Shown in pieces: positions 22,615 through 38,615 of a stretch of 64,000 bases of DNA. A model generated the notes under the pieces. It did no database searches and was not told the origin of the DNA. It worked only from the letters and a program-made list of their open reading frames with translations. The DNA is taken from positions 509,794 through 573,793 of the forward strand of contig NW_015163613.1 of assembly GCF_001447785.1 (NCBI RefSeq), written 5' to 3'. Within the stretch, counting starts at the first letter, position 1. The number at the start of each line of letters is the position of its first letter. The translations under genes and the position numbers were made by a program. This stretch comes from Gekko japonicus (lineage: Eukaryota).

Positions 22615-24425
22615 ACAAAACTACAAAGAAAATATTGGGAAGGGTACTACATCTAGGGATAAAGGAAAGATAACCACACTAAACTAAAAAATATTGGGAA
22701 GGGTACTACATCTAGGGATAAAGGAAAGATAACCACACTAAACTAAAACCCCAAGAGGAGGAGATCTTATCCCTGTTAGTGTAAATGTTAATACTATAAG
22801 TGTTAGAATCACAATATACTTGTAGAGTTCTTGTTTATCTTATCTTCAATATTTATATGTTAATATGTTAGTTGTTATGAGAGAACTTTTTGATCATCTT
22901 CTTGTTCTTCACTTCAAAAGGCTATTTTCCAAGTCCTTCTGCCTTTACTTCGGCTTTCTGTCTCTAAAGTCATATACAACCCTGGCAGCACCTGCTCCTG
23001 TTTCAGCAGCAGAGTCCTCTTCCGTTCCAGAGGTGGCAGAGTCACTAGATTTCGTTTCTTCCTCCTTGGACTCTTCCTCCATTCCCAGCTGACGCCACAA
23101 AAACTCTTTAGCTTTGAAAGTGGAGTCTATCTTCTCTCTTTTATCGCTTATCTTAAAGATGACACCCTCCGGGATCGCCCACCTGTATGATATTCCATTA
23201 GTTTGAAGGAAAGAAATTAAATCCTTATAATTTTTCCTCTTTTGTCGAATTTCAAATGGAATGTCTTTTAAAGTTTTGATAGTTATATTTCCCATTTCCA
23301 GTGGAATTGCTGATGTCGCTTTTAAAATGACATCTCTGGTCTGTCTTCTTGAGAATCTGATCACAATTTCTCCAGGCAGGCTATTTTTTTAATATAGTTG
23401 GAGTATGCCCTGTAGGCTATCTCCATTTCTTTTATGAGCTCATCCGCTGTTAAGCCTGTTACTGGAGTGATGATCTCGCTAAGCAACTTCCTCAGGTCCT
23501 CTTTCTCTGTTTCAGGAACTCCCTGGAACCTGAGAATCATGTTAGCTTTTTCCATCTGTAATTGCAGCAAACGGCTTTCTTGGAAGTTCTGCTTTGTTTC
23601 CACTTCTCCCATTCTTTTCTTCAATTTCTTGCTTGTGGTGTCTATCTCTTTAATTTTCTCAGTTGCCTGCTCCTCTTTCTTCTCCGTTTCTTTCAGCTGG
23701 AGCTGCTGAGATGCAAAGTTCTTATTCATCACGGTCAATTGCTGGTTAATACCATCAAGTTGTTCCATCACCGGCTTAAGCATATCCGCTAACATTTTAA
23801 TGACGTCTGCTCCCTCTTTCAGTTTAGGGCTCTGACTGCCCGGCGGTTTCGTTTTCAGCTTTCTCTGCTGGGCCGCCATTTTCTCCAATTTGTTTACAGT
23901 TTCTAATGTTTCTTCCCAACTCGAGAAATTCGCCCCATGATGTCGATAGTCAAGTAAGTCTCTCAAAACACTCATGTGTTACCTCCCCTCTCCCCCTTCG
24001 TGTCGTTTATCGGTTCATTTGCATAAGAGGCGTCCCTCTTTGTGTCCACTCTTATCAGCGGGGGGCCCCCACTTTTTCAGTAAACTGGTTTATTCTGAAC
24101 TCACGTTAATTGTCGGTCAGTTTCTCTGACCTCGCTCACTTTAAACGCCATTCTGCTCAATCTCCAGTGCTTGTCCCGGTCAAACCAGCTAGTGGTCGAA
24201 GGCCACACAGTGACTGGACCGACAGGGTGGAGGGGAGCCTCAATTCTCCAGCATTATGCCATCAAAGAAGCTACCCCTCAAAAGCCCTCTGGCCTGGAGC
24301 CTATAGCAAAGGCTCCGTGGGGGTGTCACTTGAGGTGGCACCCCTCAAAGCCGCTGGTGTGCGGATCACTCTCCCGCAGTCCGGGGAGAGCGTCCGCCAT
24401 CGCTGCTTCATAAACTGGAAGTCCA
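22615..24425 (-). mobile_element. L1-clade LINE 5' portion: 5'UTR, frameshifted ORF1 (~23975-22945) and inter-ORF spacer; no ORF2
   Basis: The minus strand begins GGACTTCCAG...GATGGCGG, typical of an L1 5' end with a YY1-like site. Coiled coil followed by ILRFQGVPETEKEDL and YRWAIPEGVIF (ORF1p RRM/CTD-like). Confidence 0.8.
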
Positions 24426-25540: not shown

Positions 25541-25839
25541 TGTCACACCCCCTGACATCACCGGAAGTCTGTCAGAAGGGAACACCCACCGCTCAGGCTC
25601 CACTGGACTGTTTTGGATTGCTAGCTGGGGGGGGGCGGCGCACAGATCTGCCCTCACAAAGGAGGGAGAGCTTGTACCTGAAGGGGGGGCTCTGCTACTT
25701 ACCTGGCTGCTTCATGCTCATTGTGGCCCAACTGAGGGCTGCTGGGAGCAGGGGGCGGGGCTTGTTGCATGTGCCTGCCCCCTGAGCTCCTTACTGCCAG
25801 AGCTCCACTCCTGTGCACTCCTGCAGGAAATGACCCCTG
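25541..25839. mobile_element. One-ended copy of the same hAT MITE
   Basis: Colinear with 38117-38461; only the right TIR AAATGACCCCTG remains. Confidence 0.8.
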
Positions 25840-25886
25840 ATCACAGTAGATCCCCATTCAAGCCAAAAAGGGACAGAGCTTCTAGT

Positions 25887-26334
25887 TGTCAGCGAGCTGC
25901 CATTGAGTGCTGTGTAACCTGGCAGCCTTTTGGCTGCGATTCCCCTCCCTTCCCCCCTTCTGGTAGTTCCTTTCACTTCTCTGTAACTTAGGTCTGCTTG
26001 CTGCTACAGATAATGCCCAAGGTCGACAGCTGGAGGTGGGAAGGAGTTTTGGCGTTGCTTCGCTTATTATGTATTCTTTGCCTGAGAACTGAGCTTTTGT
26101 TTATAATATGGACCGTTGTGTTCCCAAGGGATGAGGCGCTCATTTAACCTGCTTTCCCGCACGCGGGAAGTGGACCCATTGGTCAAGACCTGGTTCAAGT
26201 TCGTTTATTATGTTGCCCCTCAGTGCCTGTAGTTATTCCTAACAATTCTTGTGTTCCTGTTTGCTCCATCGCTTTGTAATAAAATTCTACTTTGCTTCAA
26301 ACGTGGATTTATTCGAATGCTTGGGGATCGGACA
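25887..26334 (+). repeat. 5' LTR (448 bp)
   Basis: TGTCAGCGAG...TCGGACA; AATAAA at 26278-26283; direct repeat of 31439-31874. Confidence 0.96.
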
Positions 26335-26336
26335 TT

Positions 26337-26347
26337 TTGTTAGGAAT
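26337..26347 (+). promoter_or_regulatory. Self-priming primer-binding site TTGTTAGGAAT
   Basis: Exact reverse complement of ATTCCTAACAA inside the LTR (26235-26245). There is no TGG start as a tRNA PBS would need. Confidence 0.8.
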
Positions 26348-26384
26348 CCACCTTTCTTCATCACTCCGAATCTGATATTGCATC

Positions 26385-27902
26385 ATGAGCGGAGAAGAGG
26401 AGAAGCTACCTACCACTACGGAGGACTCAGGCACTTCCCCTGTCACATCAGCTACCCCAGTTACCACCGTACCGGTAACGGGAGCCGTGGGGGGAACTAT
26501 GCCAAAGCAGACTCCAGTATCGTGGCCGGCCACTCCGTTGAGGGGCCCCAAAGAACCCAGGCAAGCCTGGGACGATTGGACTATGTTTGACAATCGTGGC
26601 ACACGAGAGACATTTTCGCTCCGCGGGAGCGGATTGCGAGATAGCTTGTTTGAATAAGGGATGTACCAAGCCAGGGGTTTGGGCAGCCTGGGAAACTCGC
26701 TTGAGGGATCCGCAGATCCATGGGTGACAGGTCGGTCGAAGAAGCAGGACAGTCGTACCGCAACTGATGAAGAACGGGACGAACTGGCCGAGAGGGTAGA
26801 GGATATCTACCGAACGTTGCAACAATTAATGCAGACGGTGGGCGCAGTGTTCGACGGCCTTCCAGACATGTTGGACCGGTCGATCATGGCAGCACTGGCG
26901 AGGCAAGCCGGCCAGCAGCCGCAGATCCTGGCCCAGCCACCAGCACAGCCCATCCCCGGCCAACAACCCGCGCAGCCCGTCGCTCCGGCGGCCCCGCTGA
27001 TTCCGGCTCCCGCGGGGCCGGGGATCCCGCAGCCGGGACCGACGGCCCCTCCCGGGGCTGCGAGGCCAAAGGATTTGCTGGAGGCGACCTTTGATGGCAA
27101 CCCAGAAGACCTGGTGTACTTCACGGTGAGAGTGCAGAAATTCGTGGTGCAACATGGGCACCTGTTCCGGGATGACAGTGGCCGAATCGATGTGATCGCT
27201 GTGAGACTGAAAGGCACGGCAGCGACCTGGTATGTTGGGTTGCACAACCGCCGCGGCCCCAAACTGCGTAACCTAAGAGAGTTCATGTGGGCCCTGAGAA
27301 GCCGGTTTGAAGATGTGAATGCAGGACAAAGAGCTAAGGCGTTTTTGCACACCTTCAAACAAAAATGCCAGTCGGTGCGGGAATACTCCGCGGAATTCCA
27401 AAATCAAGCGGCAAAGCTGGGAGACTGGCCAGATCATATTCTTGTTGAAATGTATCGGGTTGGGCTCAACCCGGAGATCAGGGAAACGGTGCTGCGATCC
27501 GTGGATCCCGTGTCACTGACAGCAGGGACCCAAGAAGCGGAGAACGCTGAGAACAGGCTACAAACGTTGCGCTTGGATATGGCAGCTGGAGGCGGGAAGG
27601 TGACCCAGCAGCAAACCCCAAAACCGAAGTCATCGCGACTATCAGAGGCAGCCAGAGATCTGAGGATGAAGTTGGGGCTCTGCCTCAAGTGCGGAGGGAA
27701 AGGCCACTTCGCCGCGGATTGTGGCCAACCACAACCACCGGACAAGACTACACCATCCAAGTCGAAGCCAGCGTCGCCAGCGAAGAAGGGAGTCGCCAAA
27801 CCCAAATTCGCAAAGGCACTGCAAGTGGCTCCGGAGGATGCTCTTGAGGAATCAGCCGACTCAGAGCCGGAGGTGGCGGGAAACGAGCAAGTCCTGTTGT
27901 GA
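26385..27902 (+). pseudogene. Gypsy gag (PEG10/RTL1-like capsid plus CCHC knuckle) with one in-frame TAA at 26655-26657
   Basis: ORFs 26385-26657 and 26661-27902 share a frame. Motifs FDGNPEDL, LKGTAATW, SVREYSAEF, YRVGL; zinc knuckle CLKCGGKGHFAADC. Confidence 0.9.
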
Positions 27903-27916
27903 AGGGCGCACAACAG
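27878..27916 (+). promoter_or_regulatory. -1 ribosomal frameshift signal: G GGA AAC plus downstream stem-loop
   Basis: Slippery heptamer 27878-27884 in the gag frame; 9-nt spacer; perfect 8-bp stem CTGTTGTG/CACAACAG (27894-27916). Confidence 0.8.
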
Positions 27917-30900
27917 CAAGGCTTAACGTCGGAGGCACCTATAGTGGTGAGAGAACCCCCCTCTCTTTTTTTCGTGACTGTATCTTTGATTAACCCGATT
28001 CTGGGGACTCGTGCGGGTGAAAGCACTGATTGACTCGGGGTGTGGCAGAGACTTGATCAGCCCAAGTGTAGTAACAGGGTTGGAGGCGGGCATCAAAAGA
28101 TTGAAATCCCCCATCATTTTTACTCAGATGGATGGGGCCCCAATGAAACCTTGTGCCCATGAGACTATGCCTTTGAGATTGGGGGCTGGGGAGCATTGGG
28201 AGCAACGCACGTTTATTGTCACCCCAGACTCCCAATTTGCGTTGGTGTTGGGAGCCCCGTGGTTGTATAGCCATGACCCATACATTCTGTGGGAAGAAGG
28301 GAAAATTGATTTCATGTCGCCCAAATGCCGGCTGCATACGTGGGACGGAGAGTGGGGAGATCCTCCGCCTGTTACATTCCCTTGTGCAGTGCTAACTAAT
28401 GAGGACATGGCAGCTCTGCCTCTGGAGTATCACGACCTGGCCCCAGCATTTGGGGAGGAGGAAGCGGATGAGTTGCCACCCCATAGAAAAACTGACTGTA
28501 GCATCGAACTCATCCCAGGGGCGAAATTTCCCAAAGGGAAAATTTATGCCATGGGGCCAGCCGAAAAAGCTGAGTTGCGGAAATTCATTGATAAGAACCT
28601 GGCCAGGGGTTTCATCCGGCCGGCGTCATCCCCGTTTGCAGCCCCTGTCCTGTTTCGGAAGAAGAAAGACAGGGGGCTGCGCTTATGCACAGATTACAGA
28701 GGATTGAATGCTGTTTCTACATCAAATGCCTATCCCCTCCCTCTCATAAAGGACTTGCTTGCTGAAGCAGCGAAAGGGAAAATCTTTTCTAAACTTGACT
28801 TGCGGGATGCCTATTTCCGGGTGCGGATTAGGGAAGGGGATGAAGGGAAGACCGCATTTAACACACCATTGGGGCAATTCGAATATCTTGTTATGCCGTT
28901 CGGACTTCAGGGGGCTCCGGGGGTCTTCATGAACTTGATTAATGAGGTCCTACATGACTTTTTGTTTAAAGGAGTGATTATTTATTTAGATGACATTTTA
29001 CTGTACTCCCAGGACCTCCCCTCCCACATTCAATTGGTCAGAAAGGTCCTCAAAACATTGCACAAGCATAAACTGTTTGCTAAGCTGTCCAAGTGTGACT
29101 TTCACAAGACTAACATTGACTTTCTGGGGTACCGCATCTCGGAGGGAGGGTTAGAAATGGATCCTGGGAAGATCAAAGATGTGGTAGAATGGGAGGCCCC
29201 CAAAACCCGCAGACAACTCCAAGGTTTCTTAGGATTCGCCAATTTTTATCGCTCATTTATCAAGGGGTTCGCCCAGATTGCACTTCCCCTCACTGACCTA
29301 CTAAAGACGAAAGGGAAGGGGTTTGACGCCACGAAGCCAGGGCCCCCGCTGAAATGGTCAGCGGAGTGCGAGGAGGCTTTCCAATGCCTTAAACGCATGT
29401 TCACATCTGAGCCAGTTCTGGCACACCCCGACGAGACGAAAAAGTTCATTGTGCAAACTGACGCGTCTGATGTAGCCATGGGTGCAGCTATTTTACAGAA
29501 GGGGGAAGATGGGCTTTTACACCCCCTTGCTTATGTCTCACATAAGTTTTCAGATGCTGAGAGACACTGGTCGCTTTGGGAGAAGGAGGCGTCAGCGATC
29601 CGGTTAGCGTTATGTACCTGGCGCCATTGGTTGGAGGGGGCGAGGGTCCTGTTCGAGGTTTGGACTGATCACAAGAACCTCAAGACTCTTAAATCACCCA
29701 AGTGCTTGAATGCCAAGCAATTACGGTGGGCGGATTTCTTCTCCAAGTTTCAGTTCACATTGCACCATTTCCCAGGCTCTGCTAACTCCCTAGCTGATGG
29801 GTTGTCCCGCCTACCGCAACATGAGAGCTTGCAGGACGTCATCATTGACTCGATCTTTACACCTGCCCAGTTGGGCGGAGCGGTGGTGACTCGCAGTCAG
29901 GCACGGAAACTCCCCCCGGCTACTCCGACTCCTCCTTCACTTTCCCCCTCCCCGTTGCCCGGCAACGATTGGAAATCCCGCTACGCGGCTGAATTCTCTG
30001 AGGAGGATGCGACCCTGGTGGGGGGGGTTGGAAGACTGTGTCCATAGCCCGGATGGACTGTATTATGCTGGGGGAATACTCTATGTACCTATTTCTCTCT
30101 GCAGGGAAGTCATGCATGCGGCCCATGGGACGAAACTGGCAGGGCACTGGGGCTTTGTGAAATCCCTGCAACTGCTGCGCCGGCAATGCTGGTGGCCACA
30201 CATGCGCAAAGATCTGTTGGACTTCGTTCACACTTGTCAGCTGTGTGCCTTGACTAAGCCAAGGGGGGGGGGGTAAGACCCCTGGTTTGTTGAAACCATT
30301 GCCAACTCCGGGGAAGCCATGGGACGTCATCTCTATTGATTTTATCACTGACTTGCCCCCCAGTAAAGGAAAGTCGGTGATTTGGGTGGTGGTTGATTTG
30401 TTTTCCAAACAAGCGCATTTCATCCCCTTCCCCTCACTGCCTACAGCACAACGACTGGCTAAAGCTTTCCTATCTCACGTCGTACGCCTCCATCTTCTAC
30501 CTTCTAAGGTGATCTCCGATAGGGGTACACAATTCGTTTCTAAATTCTGGAAAGAACACATGAACATCATGGGGGTGGAGCAAGGACTCAGCAGTGCTTA
30601 CCACCCAGAAACTGATGGCCAAACCGAACGGGTTAACCAAACCCTGGAGCAATATTTGCGTTGTTATACCAACTTTTTGCAGAATGACTGGTCTGATTTG
30701 TTGCCTTTGGCTGAATATTGCTATAATAACAGTTTACATTCTTCCATTGGGATGTCGCCTTTCAGGGCGGTATATGGCTATGACAGCCCACCCCTTCCTC
30801 TCCTGGGGGGGGGAACCTCTGCAGGGGGGTGATGCGGTGGAATGGTGTAAGTCTTTGCAAGAAGCATGGCCTTTATTATGCCAAACCTTGGAGGCTGCAA

Positions 30901-31415
30901 AAGCCGCGTATAAGGCTCAGGCTGATCGTGACAGGGTGGTGGGTTGGGGTCTTCAGCCTGGTGATTATATGTATGTATCCACGAAAAACATTAAAATGCT
31001 GAGGCCTAGCAAGAAATTGGGATGGAAATACATTGGTCCTTTTAAGGTACGAAAGATCATAAATGATGTGGCTGTTGATGTGGAATTGCCTAAAAACTTG
31101 AGATCCTTACATCCTGTATTTCATTTTAGACTCCTTAAAAAGGATACCGGTCAATCAAAGTGGCGACCTGTACGTGAGCCGCCTCCCCTTGTGTTGGTGG
31201 AGGGCCAAGAACATTTCGAAATTGCTGACATCTTAGATTCCAAACTGAAGCGTGGTAAACTGTGGTATTTGATCGAATGGATTGATTTCGGACCCCAGCA
31301 CCAGGAATGGGTGGAAGAAGGGGATATTCGGGCCCCTTATATGCTCAGAGACTTTCACAAGAGGTTCCCGGACAAACCGGGAGGTCTCCCGCCCAAACCG
31401 GGAGAAGGTGGTTAG
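27878..31415 (+). pseudogene. Gypsy pol: protease, RT, RNase H, integrase, chromodomain; four frame breaks
   Basis: ALIDSG (PR), YLDD (RT), TDASD (RH), H..H/C..C zinc finger, SIDF/ISDRG/GQTERVN (DDE), GPF motif, chromodomain FEIADILD...WYLIEWIDF. Frame breaks near 28010, 30020-30027, 30263-30273 and 30805-30829. Confidence 0.93.
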
Positions 31416-31425
31416 AGGTGATTTT

Positions 31426-31438
31426 AGGGAGGGCAGTA
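31426..31438 (+). promoter_or_regulatory. Polypurine tract AGGGAGGGCAGTA
   Basis: Purine-rich run abutting the TG of the 3' LTR. Confidence 0.8.
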
Positions 31439-31874
31439 TGTCAGCGAGCTGCCATTGAGTGCTGTGTAACCTGGCAGCCTTTTGGCTGCGATTCCCCTCC
31501 CTTCCCCCCTTCTGGTAGTTCCTTTCACTTCTCTGTAACTTAGGTCTGCTTGCTGCTACAGATAATGCCCAAGGTCGACAGCTGGAGGTGGGAAGGAGTT
31601 TTGGTGTCGCTTCGCTTATTATGTATTCTTTGCCTGAGAACTGAGCTTGTGTTTATAATATGGACCGTTGTGTTCCCAAGGGATGAGGCGCTCATTTAAC
31701 CTGCTTTCCCACACGTGGGAAGTGGACCCATTGGTCAAGACCTGGTTCAAGTTCGTTTATTAGTGCCTGTAGTTATTCCTAACAATTCTTGTGTTCCTGT
31801 TTGCTCCATCGCTTTGTAATAAAATTCTACTTTGCTTCAAACGTGGATTTATTCGAATGCTTTGGGATCGGACA
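31439..31874 (+). repeat. 3' LTR (436 bp)
   Basis: Differs from the 5' LTR by about six substitutions and one 12-bp deletion (compared by eye). Confidence 0.96.
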
Positions 31875-32247
31875 CTAGTCAAGAGAAGTAATCTCTGCCC
31901 AGTGAAAAGGCAGATAAGTCTTAAAAGAGGAGTGATCCCTTGTCTGTGTAGAGAGAAGGATTTTGGGAACTTGTTTGTACATTCCTGCCTTCTAAACATG
32001 AAATGTCAGTGAAACTCAGAAACCTATGCTTGCAAGTTAAAGGAGACACTGAAAATAAAGCCTCTCTTTTCAAAGTTTCAAAGACCTTGTTGAAAAGCAA
32101 GAACTCTTACTTGTTGACAATATATTAGCTGGATTTAGTGTGACTACAAAGTTCCTTCAGTTTTTATTATTGGTTCACCTCATACATCCTACCCCTGAAT
32201 ACACCTGACCTTTCCCCCTCCAAATTAAATAAACAATTTTGCTTATT

Positions 32248-33953
32248 TTTGAACTCATTCAATACCTACATGCGCCCCCTCGCCCATATTATCTGGAGGT
32301 ATAGGCTGGGGTGTCGCCAGTATGCAGATGACACCCAGCTCTATCTACTGATGGACGGTCACCCGGACACGGCCCCTGGAGATCTGGAGGAGGTGTTACA
32401 GGCCATGGCTGGATGGTTGCATCAGAGCCGACTGAAGCTAAATCTATTTAAGACGGAGGTCCTGTACCTTAGTCGCAGGGGATTGGGACAGGGGATCAGG
32501 CTCCCAGCCTTCGATGGGGCTCCATTGGTCCCGACCGAGGGTAAAGAGCCTGGGGGTGTTCCTGGATGCCTCCCTCTCTATGGAGGCCCAGGTCACAGCC
32601 ACTGCCAGGTCTGCCTTCTTCCATCGGAGGCAGATCAGGCAGCTGGCTCCACACCTCACCTCCCAAGACTTAGCTACAGTGATCCATGCAGACTTCCAGA
32701 CTGGATTATTGAAACTCTCTCTATGAGGGGCTACCGTTGACCCTGATCCGGAAGTTGCAGCTAGTGCAGAACACAGCAGCGTGGATGTTGACGGTGATGC
32801 CTGTGCAGGCACACATCCACCCAGTGCTGCGCAACCTGCACTGGCTGCCTATTAAATTCCAGATCCGTTTCAAGGTGCTGGTACTTAACTTCAAAGCCCT
32901 ATACAGGCAGGGGCCAGCATACCTTCGAGACCACATCTCTCCATATGAGCCCCGTAGAGCACTAAGGTCCACCAATCAACATCTTTTGGTGGTCCCCAGC
33001 TTCAGGGACGTCTGACTTGCCTCAACCAGTACCAGGGCTTTTTTGGCCCTGGCCCCTGCCTGGTGGAATGAGCTCCCGTGTGAGATCAGGGTCCTGCGGG
33101 ATTTTATTTATTTATTTATTTATTTTATTTGGGATTTATATCCCGCCCTACCCATACGGCCCAGGGTGGCAAACAAGCGGCAACGCCGGAAATAAAACAT
33201 AAATTACAATAAAACCTTAATAAATACAAACTAAAATGGTGCTCTACAATTCATTTAAAAATTCAAGATGGTCGATGTCCCTCACTGGCGGCCAATGATA
33301 TAGAAGCAGGAACGCCAGAGTAATGTTCCTCTTGTGGGCAACGTCAGCCCCTGCCCAAAGCCAGGTAGATGGCAAATCAAGCCACGGTGGTGGTATAGTG
33401 GCGGCGGCGGCTCCTACTCGAAAGCCTGGCGGAAGAGCTCCGTCTTGCAGGCCCTGCGGAACTGTACCAGGTCCCGCAGGGCCTGGATCTCCACCGGGAG
33501 CTCATTCCACCAGGTAGGAGCCGCCACCGAAAAAGCCCTGGCCTTGGTTAGGGCAAGCTTGATATCCCGAGGGCCTGGAACCACTAGGAGGTCCAGACTC
33601 CCCGATCGCAGCGCTCTTGGGGGAACATATGGGGAGATTTATTACAATTCCGCAGGGCCTGCAAGACGAAGCCCTTCCACTGGGCTTTCGGTTGAGGCAG
33701 CGGGTGTTCCCCTCCTTGGGTCAGCCTCCATTTGTAGACTGGGTCTGAGATCCTAAACTTTATAGATCTTTGGGAAATTTAATTGCTAGTACCATTGAGA
33801 TATCTGGCTTTTTACTAGAGCTGTATGGCATATATGAGTTATGTTATTTTATATTGTGTTTTAATGTGGTTTTAATTGTATTGTATTTTATGCTGTTGGA
33901 ACCCGCCCTGAGCCCATTAAGGGGAGGGAGGGATGTAAAACCAAATAAATAAA
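32248..33953 (+). mobile_element. L2 LINE 3' fragment interrupted by an antisense L2 3' fragment (~33103-33636)
   Basis: QYADDTQLY, KLQLVQN and LHWLPI motifs; (TAAA)n tails at ~33943-33953 (+) and ~33103-33130 (-). Confidence 0.88.
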
Positions 33954-37892: not shown

Positions 37893-38615
37893 TAGGGTTT
37901 TACTGGAAGAGACAGTAATGCTAGGAAGAGTTGAAGGCAGCAGGAAAAGAAGAAGACCTACCATGAGATGGATTCAGTAAAAGAAGCCATGGCCTTCAGT
38001 TTGCAAGACCTGAGCAAAGTTGTTAATTATAGGATGCTTTGGAGCAGGGGTCATTTTGTAGAAAAAGAGGTGCAGGAGCTCATTAGCATAACTCATTAGC
38101 ATATCTTATTTGCATATGCCACACCCCCTGACATCACTGGGAGTGTGTCAGAAGGCAACACCCACCGCTTAAGCTCCACTGGACTGTTTTGGATTGCTAG
38201 CTATTGGGGGGGGGAGGAACGTGCAGATCTGTCCTCACAGAGGAGGGAGAGCTTGTACCTGAATAGAACTTGGTCTTAAAGGTGCCACTGGACTGTTTTG
38301 GACTGGGAGGCTGGGGGGAGCTCTGCAACTTATCTGGCTGCTTCTTGCTCTGACTGTGGGCCGCTGGGAGCAGGGGGTGGGGCTTGTTGCATGTGCCTGC
38401 CCCCTGGGCTGTTTACTGCCGGAGCTCAGCTCCTGTGCGCTCCTGCAGGAAATGACCCCTGCTTTGGAGGTTATTAATGTATAGGGTCACCATAAGTTGG
38501 AAGACAGTTGATGGCACTTAACACACACACACACACAAGGAGGGCCTGGCATGATGTGGTCCATGGGGTTGCGAAGAGTTGGACTCAACTGTGAACAAAA
38601 ACAACAACAACACCA
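37893..38615 (+). mobile_element. RTE-BovB 3' fragments with (CA)n and (CAA)n tails, split by a MITE
   Basis: MLGRVEGSRKRRRPTMRW and GTCCATGGGGTTGCGAAGAGTTGGAC (BovB tail). Confidence 0.8.
38045..38461. mobile_element. hAT MITE, CAGGGGTCATTT family, inserted in an RTE-BovB fragment
   Basis: TIRs plus 8-bp TSD CTTTGGAG. Confidence 0.9.

Follow-up and report, generated by a model that had tools for sequence, protein, structure and literature searches.

Tf1 of Schizosaccharomyces pombe primes reverse transcription from its own RNA; the first 11 RNA bases pair with the element’s primer-binding site (PBS) and are removed by RNase H (accessible part of PMC7175516), a precedent that a sequence-only reading of the locus described here had named correctly. 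As far as the literature examined shows, self-priming has been proven by experiment only in fission yeast. In the sections available to us, three papers treat it as a common trait of Tf1/sushi elements from fungi to vertebrates, and cite Butler et al. (2001) for the proposal that vertebrate sushi elements self-prime and adopt a pretzel fold (PMC6317226, PMC4600332, PMC10085805). Vertebrate self-priming has so far rested on complementarity in single elements. Hairpin priming is mentioned in PMC3601003, neither kind of priming site was found in one lycophyte element (PMC2864245), ‘self-priming’ in PMC4340606 denotes a PCR artefact only, and PMC7472051 yielded nothing on the priming of sushi elements.

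Among reptiles, full-length chromoviruses are present in Anolis, other squamates, turtles, tuatara and crocodiles. A 2009 study reportedly described a full-length Anolis chromovirus, and may describe its PBS. Squamate full-length elements have already been named as the extant relatives of the elements from which domesticated genes of mammals arose, and priming is not mentioned in the accessible part of that paper (PMC3670739). We found no reptile case of self-priming and no covariation study in the literature searched, which lay mostly outside the subscription journals; Repbase reports or older papers may hold one.

The element described here shares with Tf1 and Tf2 of S. pombe (and with Tj1 and Tosmo1-3) the organisation of a chromodomain Ty3/gypsy element and a PBS complementary to its own LTR, and the length of its predicted primer, 11 nt, is that of the Tf1 primer. 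With the vertebrate Tf1/sushi elements (sushi-ichi, Amn-ichi/ni/san; the GyDB V-clade) it shares proposed self-priming and a -1 frameshift at the gag-pol junction, here a predicted one. It also differs from Tf1, in which self-priming is experimental, whereas here it is read from sequence; Tf1 is a single-ORF element that lacks a CCHC finger (accessible part of PMC10085805), whereas ours carries such a finger together with a predicted -1 frameshift; and Tf1 requires a three-duplex pretzel, whereas the two flanking helices drawn here have no covariation support.

Results

A full-length chromovirus close to PDZRN4 exons

The window, a stretch of 64,000 nucleotides from Gekko japonicus, contains a full-length Ty3/gypsy chromovirus at 25887-31874, flanked by a 5-bp target duplication (Table 1). 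The order of its genes (gag, then protease-RT-RNase H-integrase, without env; Pfam and reading frames) is that of Ty3/gypsy, its best match among solved RT structures is Ty3 (E 1.3e-66), and the C-terminus of its integrase carries the chromodomain that defines chromoviruses (PF00385, E 2.6e-5; at 24.5 bits, just below the 25.1 cut-off), preceded by a Tf2-like SH3 domain (Pfam, E 7.7e-16). As in Tf1/sushi elements, the PBS matches the element’s own LTR and not a tRNA 3' end, and, as in members of that group outside fission yeast, gag and pol are joined by a predicted -1 frameshift. The top database RT matches were fish, amphibian and squamate gypsy proteins (44-68%), and in a quick tree of 113 such database matches, built without named references (Tf1, sushi-ichi, MAGGY), the window RT paired with one Logan protein and then with Anolis proteins (support 86, not strong).

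Between the two LTRs we counted 6 substitutions over 436 columns and one 12-nt gap, which bears out the earlier description of the element as young. At a rate of 1-2 substitutions per billion sites per year, the divergence suggests an age of about 3-7 million years. The 12-nt segment is absent from the 3' LTR of the window copy, and the long form is kept in other copies. The same reading had called the element near-intact, which is true of its structure but not of its coding capacity or its 3' LTR with the 12-nt loss: there are five coding breaks, namely the gag stop and four pol frame changes near 28010, 30027, 30230-30270 and 30800-30830 (three placed against a natural relative, the fourth from Pfam matches and reading frames). 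The window copy is dead, and the self-priming signal is a property of the family.

The claimed squamate host agrees with a PDZRN4 exon in the window that is closest to two squamates (90% and 88%) and then to turtles (86-85%). Five coding exons of this gene lie at about 35337-60332 (+) and match residues 415-1053 of the closest homologue (its last ~640 residues). The element lies upstream of these exons on the same strand and is therefore probably in an upstream PDZRN4 intron, the earlier exons lying outside the window; each of its LTRs brings a sense poly(A) signal into this setting. Around the element we observed a non-LTR reverse transcriptase fragment just after it (32144-32960, +; Pfam RVT_1, E 1.1e-4), which we take to be LINE-type; a dispersed repeat in two copies 86-91% alike (25541-25839 and 38117-38461), the element sitting just after one of them; and a perfect 59-nt tandem duplication at 22629-22746.

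Table 1. Features of the chromovirus and its leader, in window coordinates
Feature	Coordinates	Strand	Basis or remark
Target-site duplication, left copy	25882..25886	+	Same 5 bases at both LTR ends; right copy 31875-31879
5' LTR	25887..26334	+	448 nt, TG...CA
TATA-like box (octamer)	26204..26211	+	31 nt before predicted start
Initiator-like motif YYANWYY	26233..26239	+	A at 26235 = predicted RNA start; matches in 61/69 junctions
Predicted self-primer, first 11 nt of RNA	26235..26245	+	Complementarity, covariation
Inner-helix arm, candidate	26251..26256	+	Predicted fold; pairs with LTR end 26330-26335
Polyadenylation signal AATAAA	26278..26283	+	69/69 junctions, 40-46 nt after predicted start
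Arm of claimed second pairing	26303..26309	+	7/7 pairs in 2/69 junctions
Outer-helix arm, G-rich, candidate	26322..26327	+	Drawn pairing; candidate partner, pyrimidine tract at about 26348-26360
Primer-binding site	26337..26347	+	2 nt after LTR, no TGG, complement of 26235-26245
gag (capsid, CCHC finger)	26385..27902	+	In-frame stop at 26655-26657; Pfam Retrotrans_gag E 3.3e-12, Ty3_capsid E 2e-7
pol (protease, RT with YLDD, RNase H, integrase, Tf2-like SH3, chromodomain)	27875..31415	+	Pfam, reading frames
Predicted -1 frameshift signal, GGGAAAC and downstream 8-bp stem	27878..27916	+	gag-pol junction, pol in -1 frame
Polypurine tract	31426..31436	+	Before 3' LTR, from sequence
3' LTR	31439..31874	+	436 nt, TG...CA; lacks 12 nt between TATA-like box and primer copy

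The PBS is complementary to the predicted 5' end of the RNA

The 5' LTR ends at 26334, and the PBS 11-mer therefore starts at the third base after it, without TGG. This 11-mer is the exact reverse complement of 26235-26245, with coordinates and sequences just as the sequence-only reading had given them, and the absence of TGG that it had pointed out extends from the window copy to all the PBS contexts compared (0/24 with TGG). When we shuffled the dinucleotides of the LTR, a complement of at least 11 nt between the LTR and the next 25 nt arose in 6/5000 shuffles. The segment 26235-26361 was predicted to fold more stably than shuffled sequence (z -4.21; 0/200 shuffles as good), and the predicted fold holds the 11-bp duplex with pair probabilities of 0.64-1.0.

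The promoter geometry points to 26235 as the RNA start. The TATA-like box claimed at ~30 nt upstream begins 31 nt before that base in the window copy, and across the family its distance to the first paired base stays within 30-32 nt in 69/69 junctions (31 in 63/69, 30 in 5/69 and 32 in 1/69), with a column conservation of 0.94 in the box vs. 0.61 in the spacer. YYANWYY is the initiator consensus, and its A falls on the first paired base in 61/69 junctions. AATAAA lies downstream, at 26278, and the primer is therefore inside R.

Primer and PBS change together across the family

Genome searches for copies of the family returned at least 1796 and at least 3843 candidates. A profile run on the fetched loci gave 135 matches, 113 of them distinct, of which 70 extend past the PBS and 43 (3' LTRs, solo LTRs, and cut or rearranged leaders) do not; one of the 70 rows proved to be a 3' LTR and was removed, leaving 69 LTR-leader junctions, all from one genome. 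Among these junctions, whose selection required the profile match to run beyond the PBS and so left out damaged leaders, 61/69 pair at 11/11 positions, and they do so with 13 different primer/PBS sequence variants. One G-U pair was found in 2/69 and one mismatch in 4/69, and two copies stand apart. Copy L078 pairs 10/10, the same single base being missing from both arms. Copy L010 (7/11, with a TGG nearby) was considered as a tRNA-primed variant and rejected, as it is a solo LTR with a target duplication.

Between two and four kinds of Watson-Crick pair occur at each of seven of the 11 duplex positions (2, 4, 5, 6, 7, 8 and 11). When the PBS was shuffled among rows, perfect pairs averaged 18.6 with a maximum of 30 (10000 trials; a control that ignores kinship) vs. 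the 61 observed. To control for kinship, we excluded the 22 paired columns and constructed a tree from 67 rows, setting aside L010, L078 and the 3' LTR. Parsimony on this tree required 21 primer changes, 21 PBS changes and 24 for the two taken together; 18 are therefore common to both sides. Among 8907 variable column pairs, 6 of the 7 most complementary belong to the primer/PBS duplex, and own pairing exceeded cross pairing in all 20000 permutations, whether 35, 22 or 16 representatives were kept (three redundancy cut-offs). The covariation of PBS and R region among genomic copies, which the sequence-only reading had named as a check, is thus present, with 18/21 changes per side in common, and the primer/PBS match is under constraint across the family.

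Base pairs just outside the duplex are never Watson-Crick (0/69 rows). In a subfamily of 8 rows in which base 12 became A, the PBS is likewise preceded by an A, and this holds the duplex at 11 (one event only). A further subfamily adds a fourteenth variant, perfect in 3/4 of its 5' junctions and with a G-U pair in 1/4. A complete PBS is missing from four copies that have both LTRs (L094, L095, L097 and L149), in three cases through visible rearrangement; L094, L149 and L097, whose LTRs are 98-99% alike, have had the stretch that follows the 5' LTR replaced or cut, L097 keeping 8/11. At the 3' end of another copy, L092 (about 6580, minus strand), the integrase tail runs directly into the 3' LTR at a point two bases upstream of the predicted start, and U3 is gone; this single case may be either a chance deletion or a strand jump to the RNA start.

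We also compared the PBS with tRNAs, as had been suggested earlier. Among 32 tRNA-like sequences of few isotypes, the longest complement was 6 nt for the window PBS and 9 nt for any variant. Most of the Rfam tRNA matches in this genome (L110-L130) have anticodons unusual for vertebrates (e.g. Ala-GGC), and these may be tRNA-derived repeats.

Other pairings in the leader

The sequence-only reading had also proposed a second pairing, and 26345-26351 is indeed the reverse complement of 26303-26309 in the window copy, but the pairing is complete in only 2/69 junctions and absent from the predicted fold. We rejected this pairing, which overlaps the PBS by 3 nt and whose own pairing is no better than cross pairing. 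A G/U-rich element lying downstream of the poly(A) signal is the likelier identity of 26303..26309.

Tf1 requires three duplexes (accessible part of PMC10085805), and an inner and an outer helix can be drawn around the primer/PBS duplex here. In 61/67 rows the tract that follows the PBS has as its best partner a segment terminating no more than 15 nt from the PBS, and the outer helix beats its own shuffles in only 22/67 rows. Covariation was sought for both helices by comparing own with cross pairing, and none was found; the two helices remain candidates for a Tf1-like three-duplex fold.

A second family with a 10-nt primer is closer to PEG10

The genome holds a second chromovirus family (loci L081, L083, L090, L098, L133 and L182-L210), which is 46-48% identical to the window element in RT and which, sushi-like itself, sets the window family apart by a divergent capsid (25-30% identical). 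Its PBS is 10 nt long and sits at the same offset (2 nt after the LTR), with a complement 231-376 nt upstream. Pairing is 10/10 in 19/33 rows and 9/10 in 6 rows; among the 8 worse rows are some whose LTRs are gapped or deleted and one that lies on the wrong strand. There are four compensated primer/PBS variants, and the initiator and TATA matches are weaker. This family includes a young burst, with dozens of matches of near-identical score. Primers of both families have CAA or CAG as their last three bases, and the PBS lies 2 nt after the LTR in each, despite the unequal primer length; the CAA/CAG end is possibly the cut signal.

The sequence-only reading had made the window element a relative of the PEG10/RTL1 ancestor, but for PEG10 the link is a distant one in this family. 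PEG10 is the only solved chain that the window capsid matched, and it did so weakly (18.8 bits, E 0.011), vs. 80.6 bits and E 1.2e-21 for the second family. Pfam DUF4939, which we take to be the LDOC1/RTL domain, likewise scored 19-22 bits in the window family vs. 52-58 bits in the second, and a search for longer capsid homologues of the window family found none at E 0.001 among 929 candidates. Judged by the PEG10 capsid match, the second family is the better stand-in for the PEG10 ancestor because of this difference in E value.

What the window family does have in common with PEG10 and the RTL (SIRH) genes is the slippery site GGGAAAC, the heptamer that PEG10 uses (accessible part of PMC11299033). 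It is present in 31/42 distinct window-family copies, the rest being mostly one-base variants. In the 42 copies the frameshift stem shows compensated variants by eye, and a pseudoknot is possible. A slippery site with a stable stem was sought in 6 second-family loci with a narrow pattern and was not found.

Discussion

We observe directly where the PBS lies, its complementarity to the LTR, the covariation of the two across subfamilies and the fixed distance to the TATA-like box; taken together, these make it likely that the family primes reverse transcription with its own 11 nt, independently of tRNA. Self-priming with a start near 26235, as the sequence-only reading had proposed, appears strongly supported by family covariation and by the promoter geometry. 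We propose that the RNA would start at 26235, its 11-nt 5' end being the primer; that this end would fold back onto the PBS; that, on the model of Tf1, the cut by the element’s RNase H would fall after base 11; and that the freed 11-mer would prime minus-strand DNA, its extension crossing the 2-nt spacer and entering U5 and R. The tight coupling of the two sites could arise if the primer is copied into the plus-strand PBS in each cycle, or if uncompensated copies fail to replicate. For the tRNA primers of LTR elements, copying of the primer into the plus-strand PBS is established. The plus-strand step is described in the accessible part of PMC7175516, and the near-perfect compensation and the common one-base loss fit such copying, although selection alone may also yield the compensation.

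Covariation demonstrates pairing; it does not say that both arms belong to the same molecule, or where the RNA starts. The 11-mer might thus serve as primer in a way other than that of Tf1, being excised at both ends from an RNA that starts elsewhere, or being supplied by a second RNA copy in the particle. Tf2 has alternative start sites (accessible part of PMC5341516), and the flanking helices that hold the Tf1 fold show no covariation here. Against this, the TATA spacing and initiator put the predicted +1 exactly at the base where pairing begins, no complementary pair precedes base 1 in any of the 69 rows, and the single-molecule fold is favourable (pair probabilities 0.64-1.0); we regard such a route as unlikely. 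The duplex might instead be an RNA structure for packaging, dimerisation or translation control, with priming by another route, and the leader is indeed highly structured overall (z -4.21); yet in both families its 3' arm coincides with the place of a PBS, 2 nt past the LTR end, no other primer site is visible, an ordinary helix would tolerate more G-U pairs than the 2/69 seen, and the near-perfect Watson-Crick compensation, with the common one-base loss, fits templating or priming better. A purely structural role therefore seems very unlikely to us.

A host tRNA, tRNA fragment or small RNA as primer, with the LTR match a matter of chance or a relic, is the least probable of these explanations. 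The tRNA control drew on a small set, 32 tRNA-like sequences of few isotypes taken from 30 of 59 matches, so that for any single variant an internal match in some other tRNA is conceivable, and one PBS context had a 9-nt match and another an 8-nt match; the window PBS itself, however, reaches 6 nt at best, TGG is found in 0/24 contexts, and a chance match to the LTR is as rare as 6/5000 for the window copy alone. Moreover, the 13 PBS sequences track the LTR, and since they change in step with it they cannot serve one host RNA, which could not follow them. Covariation appears largely to refute a tRNA primer, and we return to priming by the element’s own 11 nt as the preferred reading.

Self-priming here is not a new mechanism; rather, the comparative evidence for it is unusually strong. 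The proposal made for vertebrate sushi elements is here backed by compensatory changes in an amniote, and the window family turns what had been complementarity in single elements into a covariation result. We also put forward, with some hesitation and as slightly more doubtful than not, a broader reading in which tRNA-independent priming in an amniote would have its first evolutionary proof in this genome: in two separate lineages of chromovirus, whose self-primers are 11 nt and 10 nt long, each cycle would rewrite the PBS from the RNA’s own 5' end, the primer drifting within the limits of a 5' initiator and of CAA/CAG at its 3' end, the latter perhaps marking where RNase H cuts; and since the 10-nt lineage is close to PEG10, the PEG10 ancestor would probably have been self-priming and beyond the reach of tRNA-fragment silencing. 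The PEG10 question shifts to the co-resident 10-nt family, and the window family offers a precise prediction (a start at 26235 and a cut after base 11) and a natural series of variants that shows which primer positions matter.
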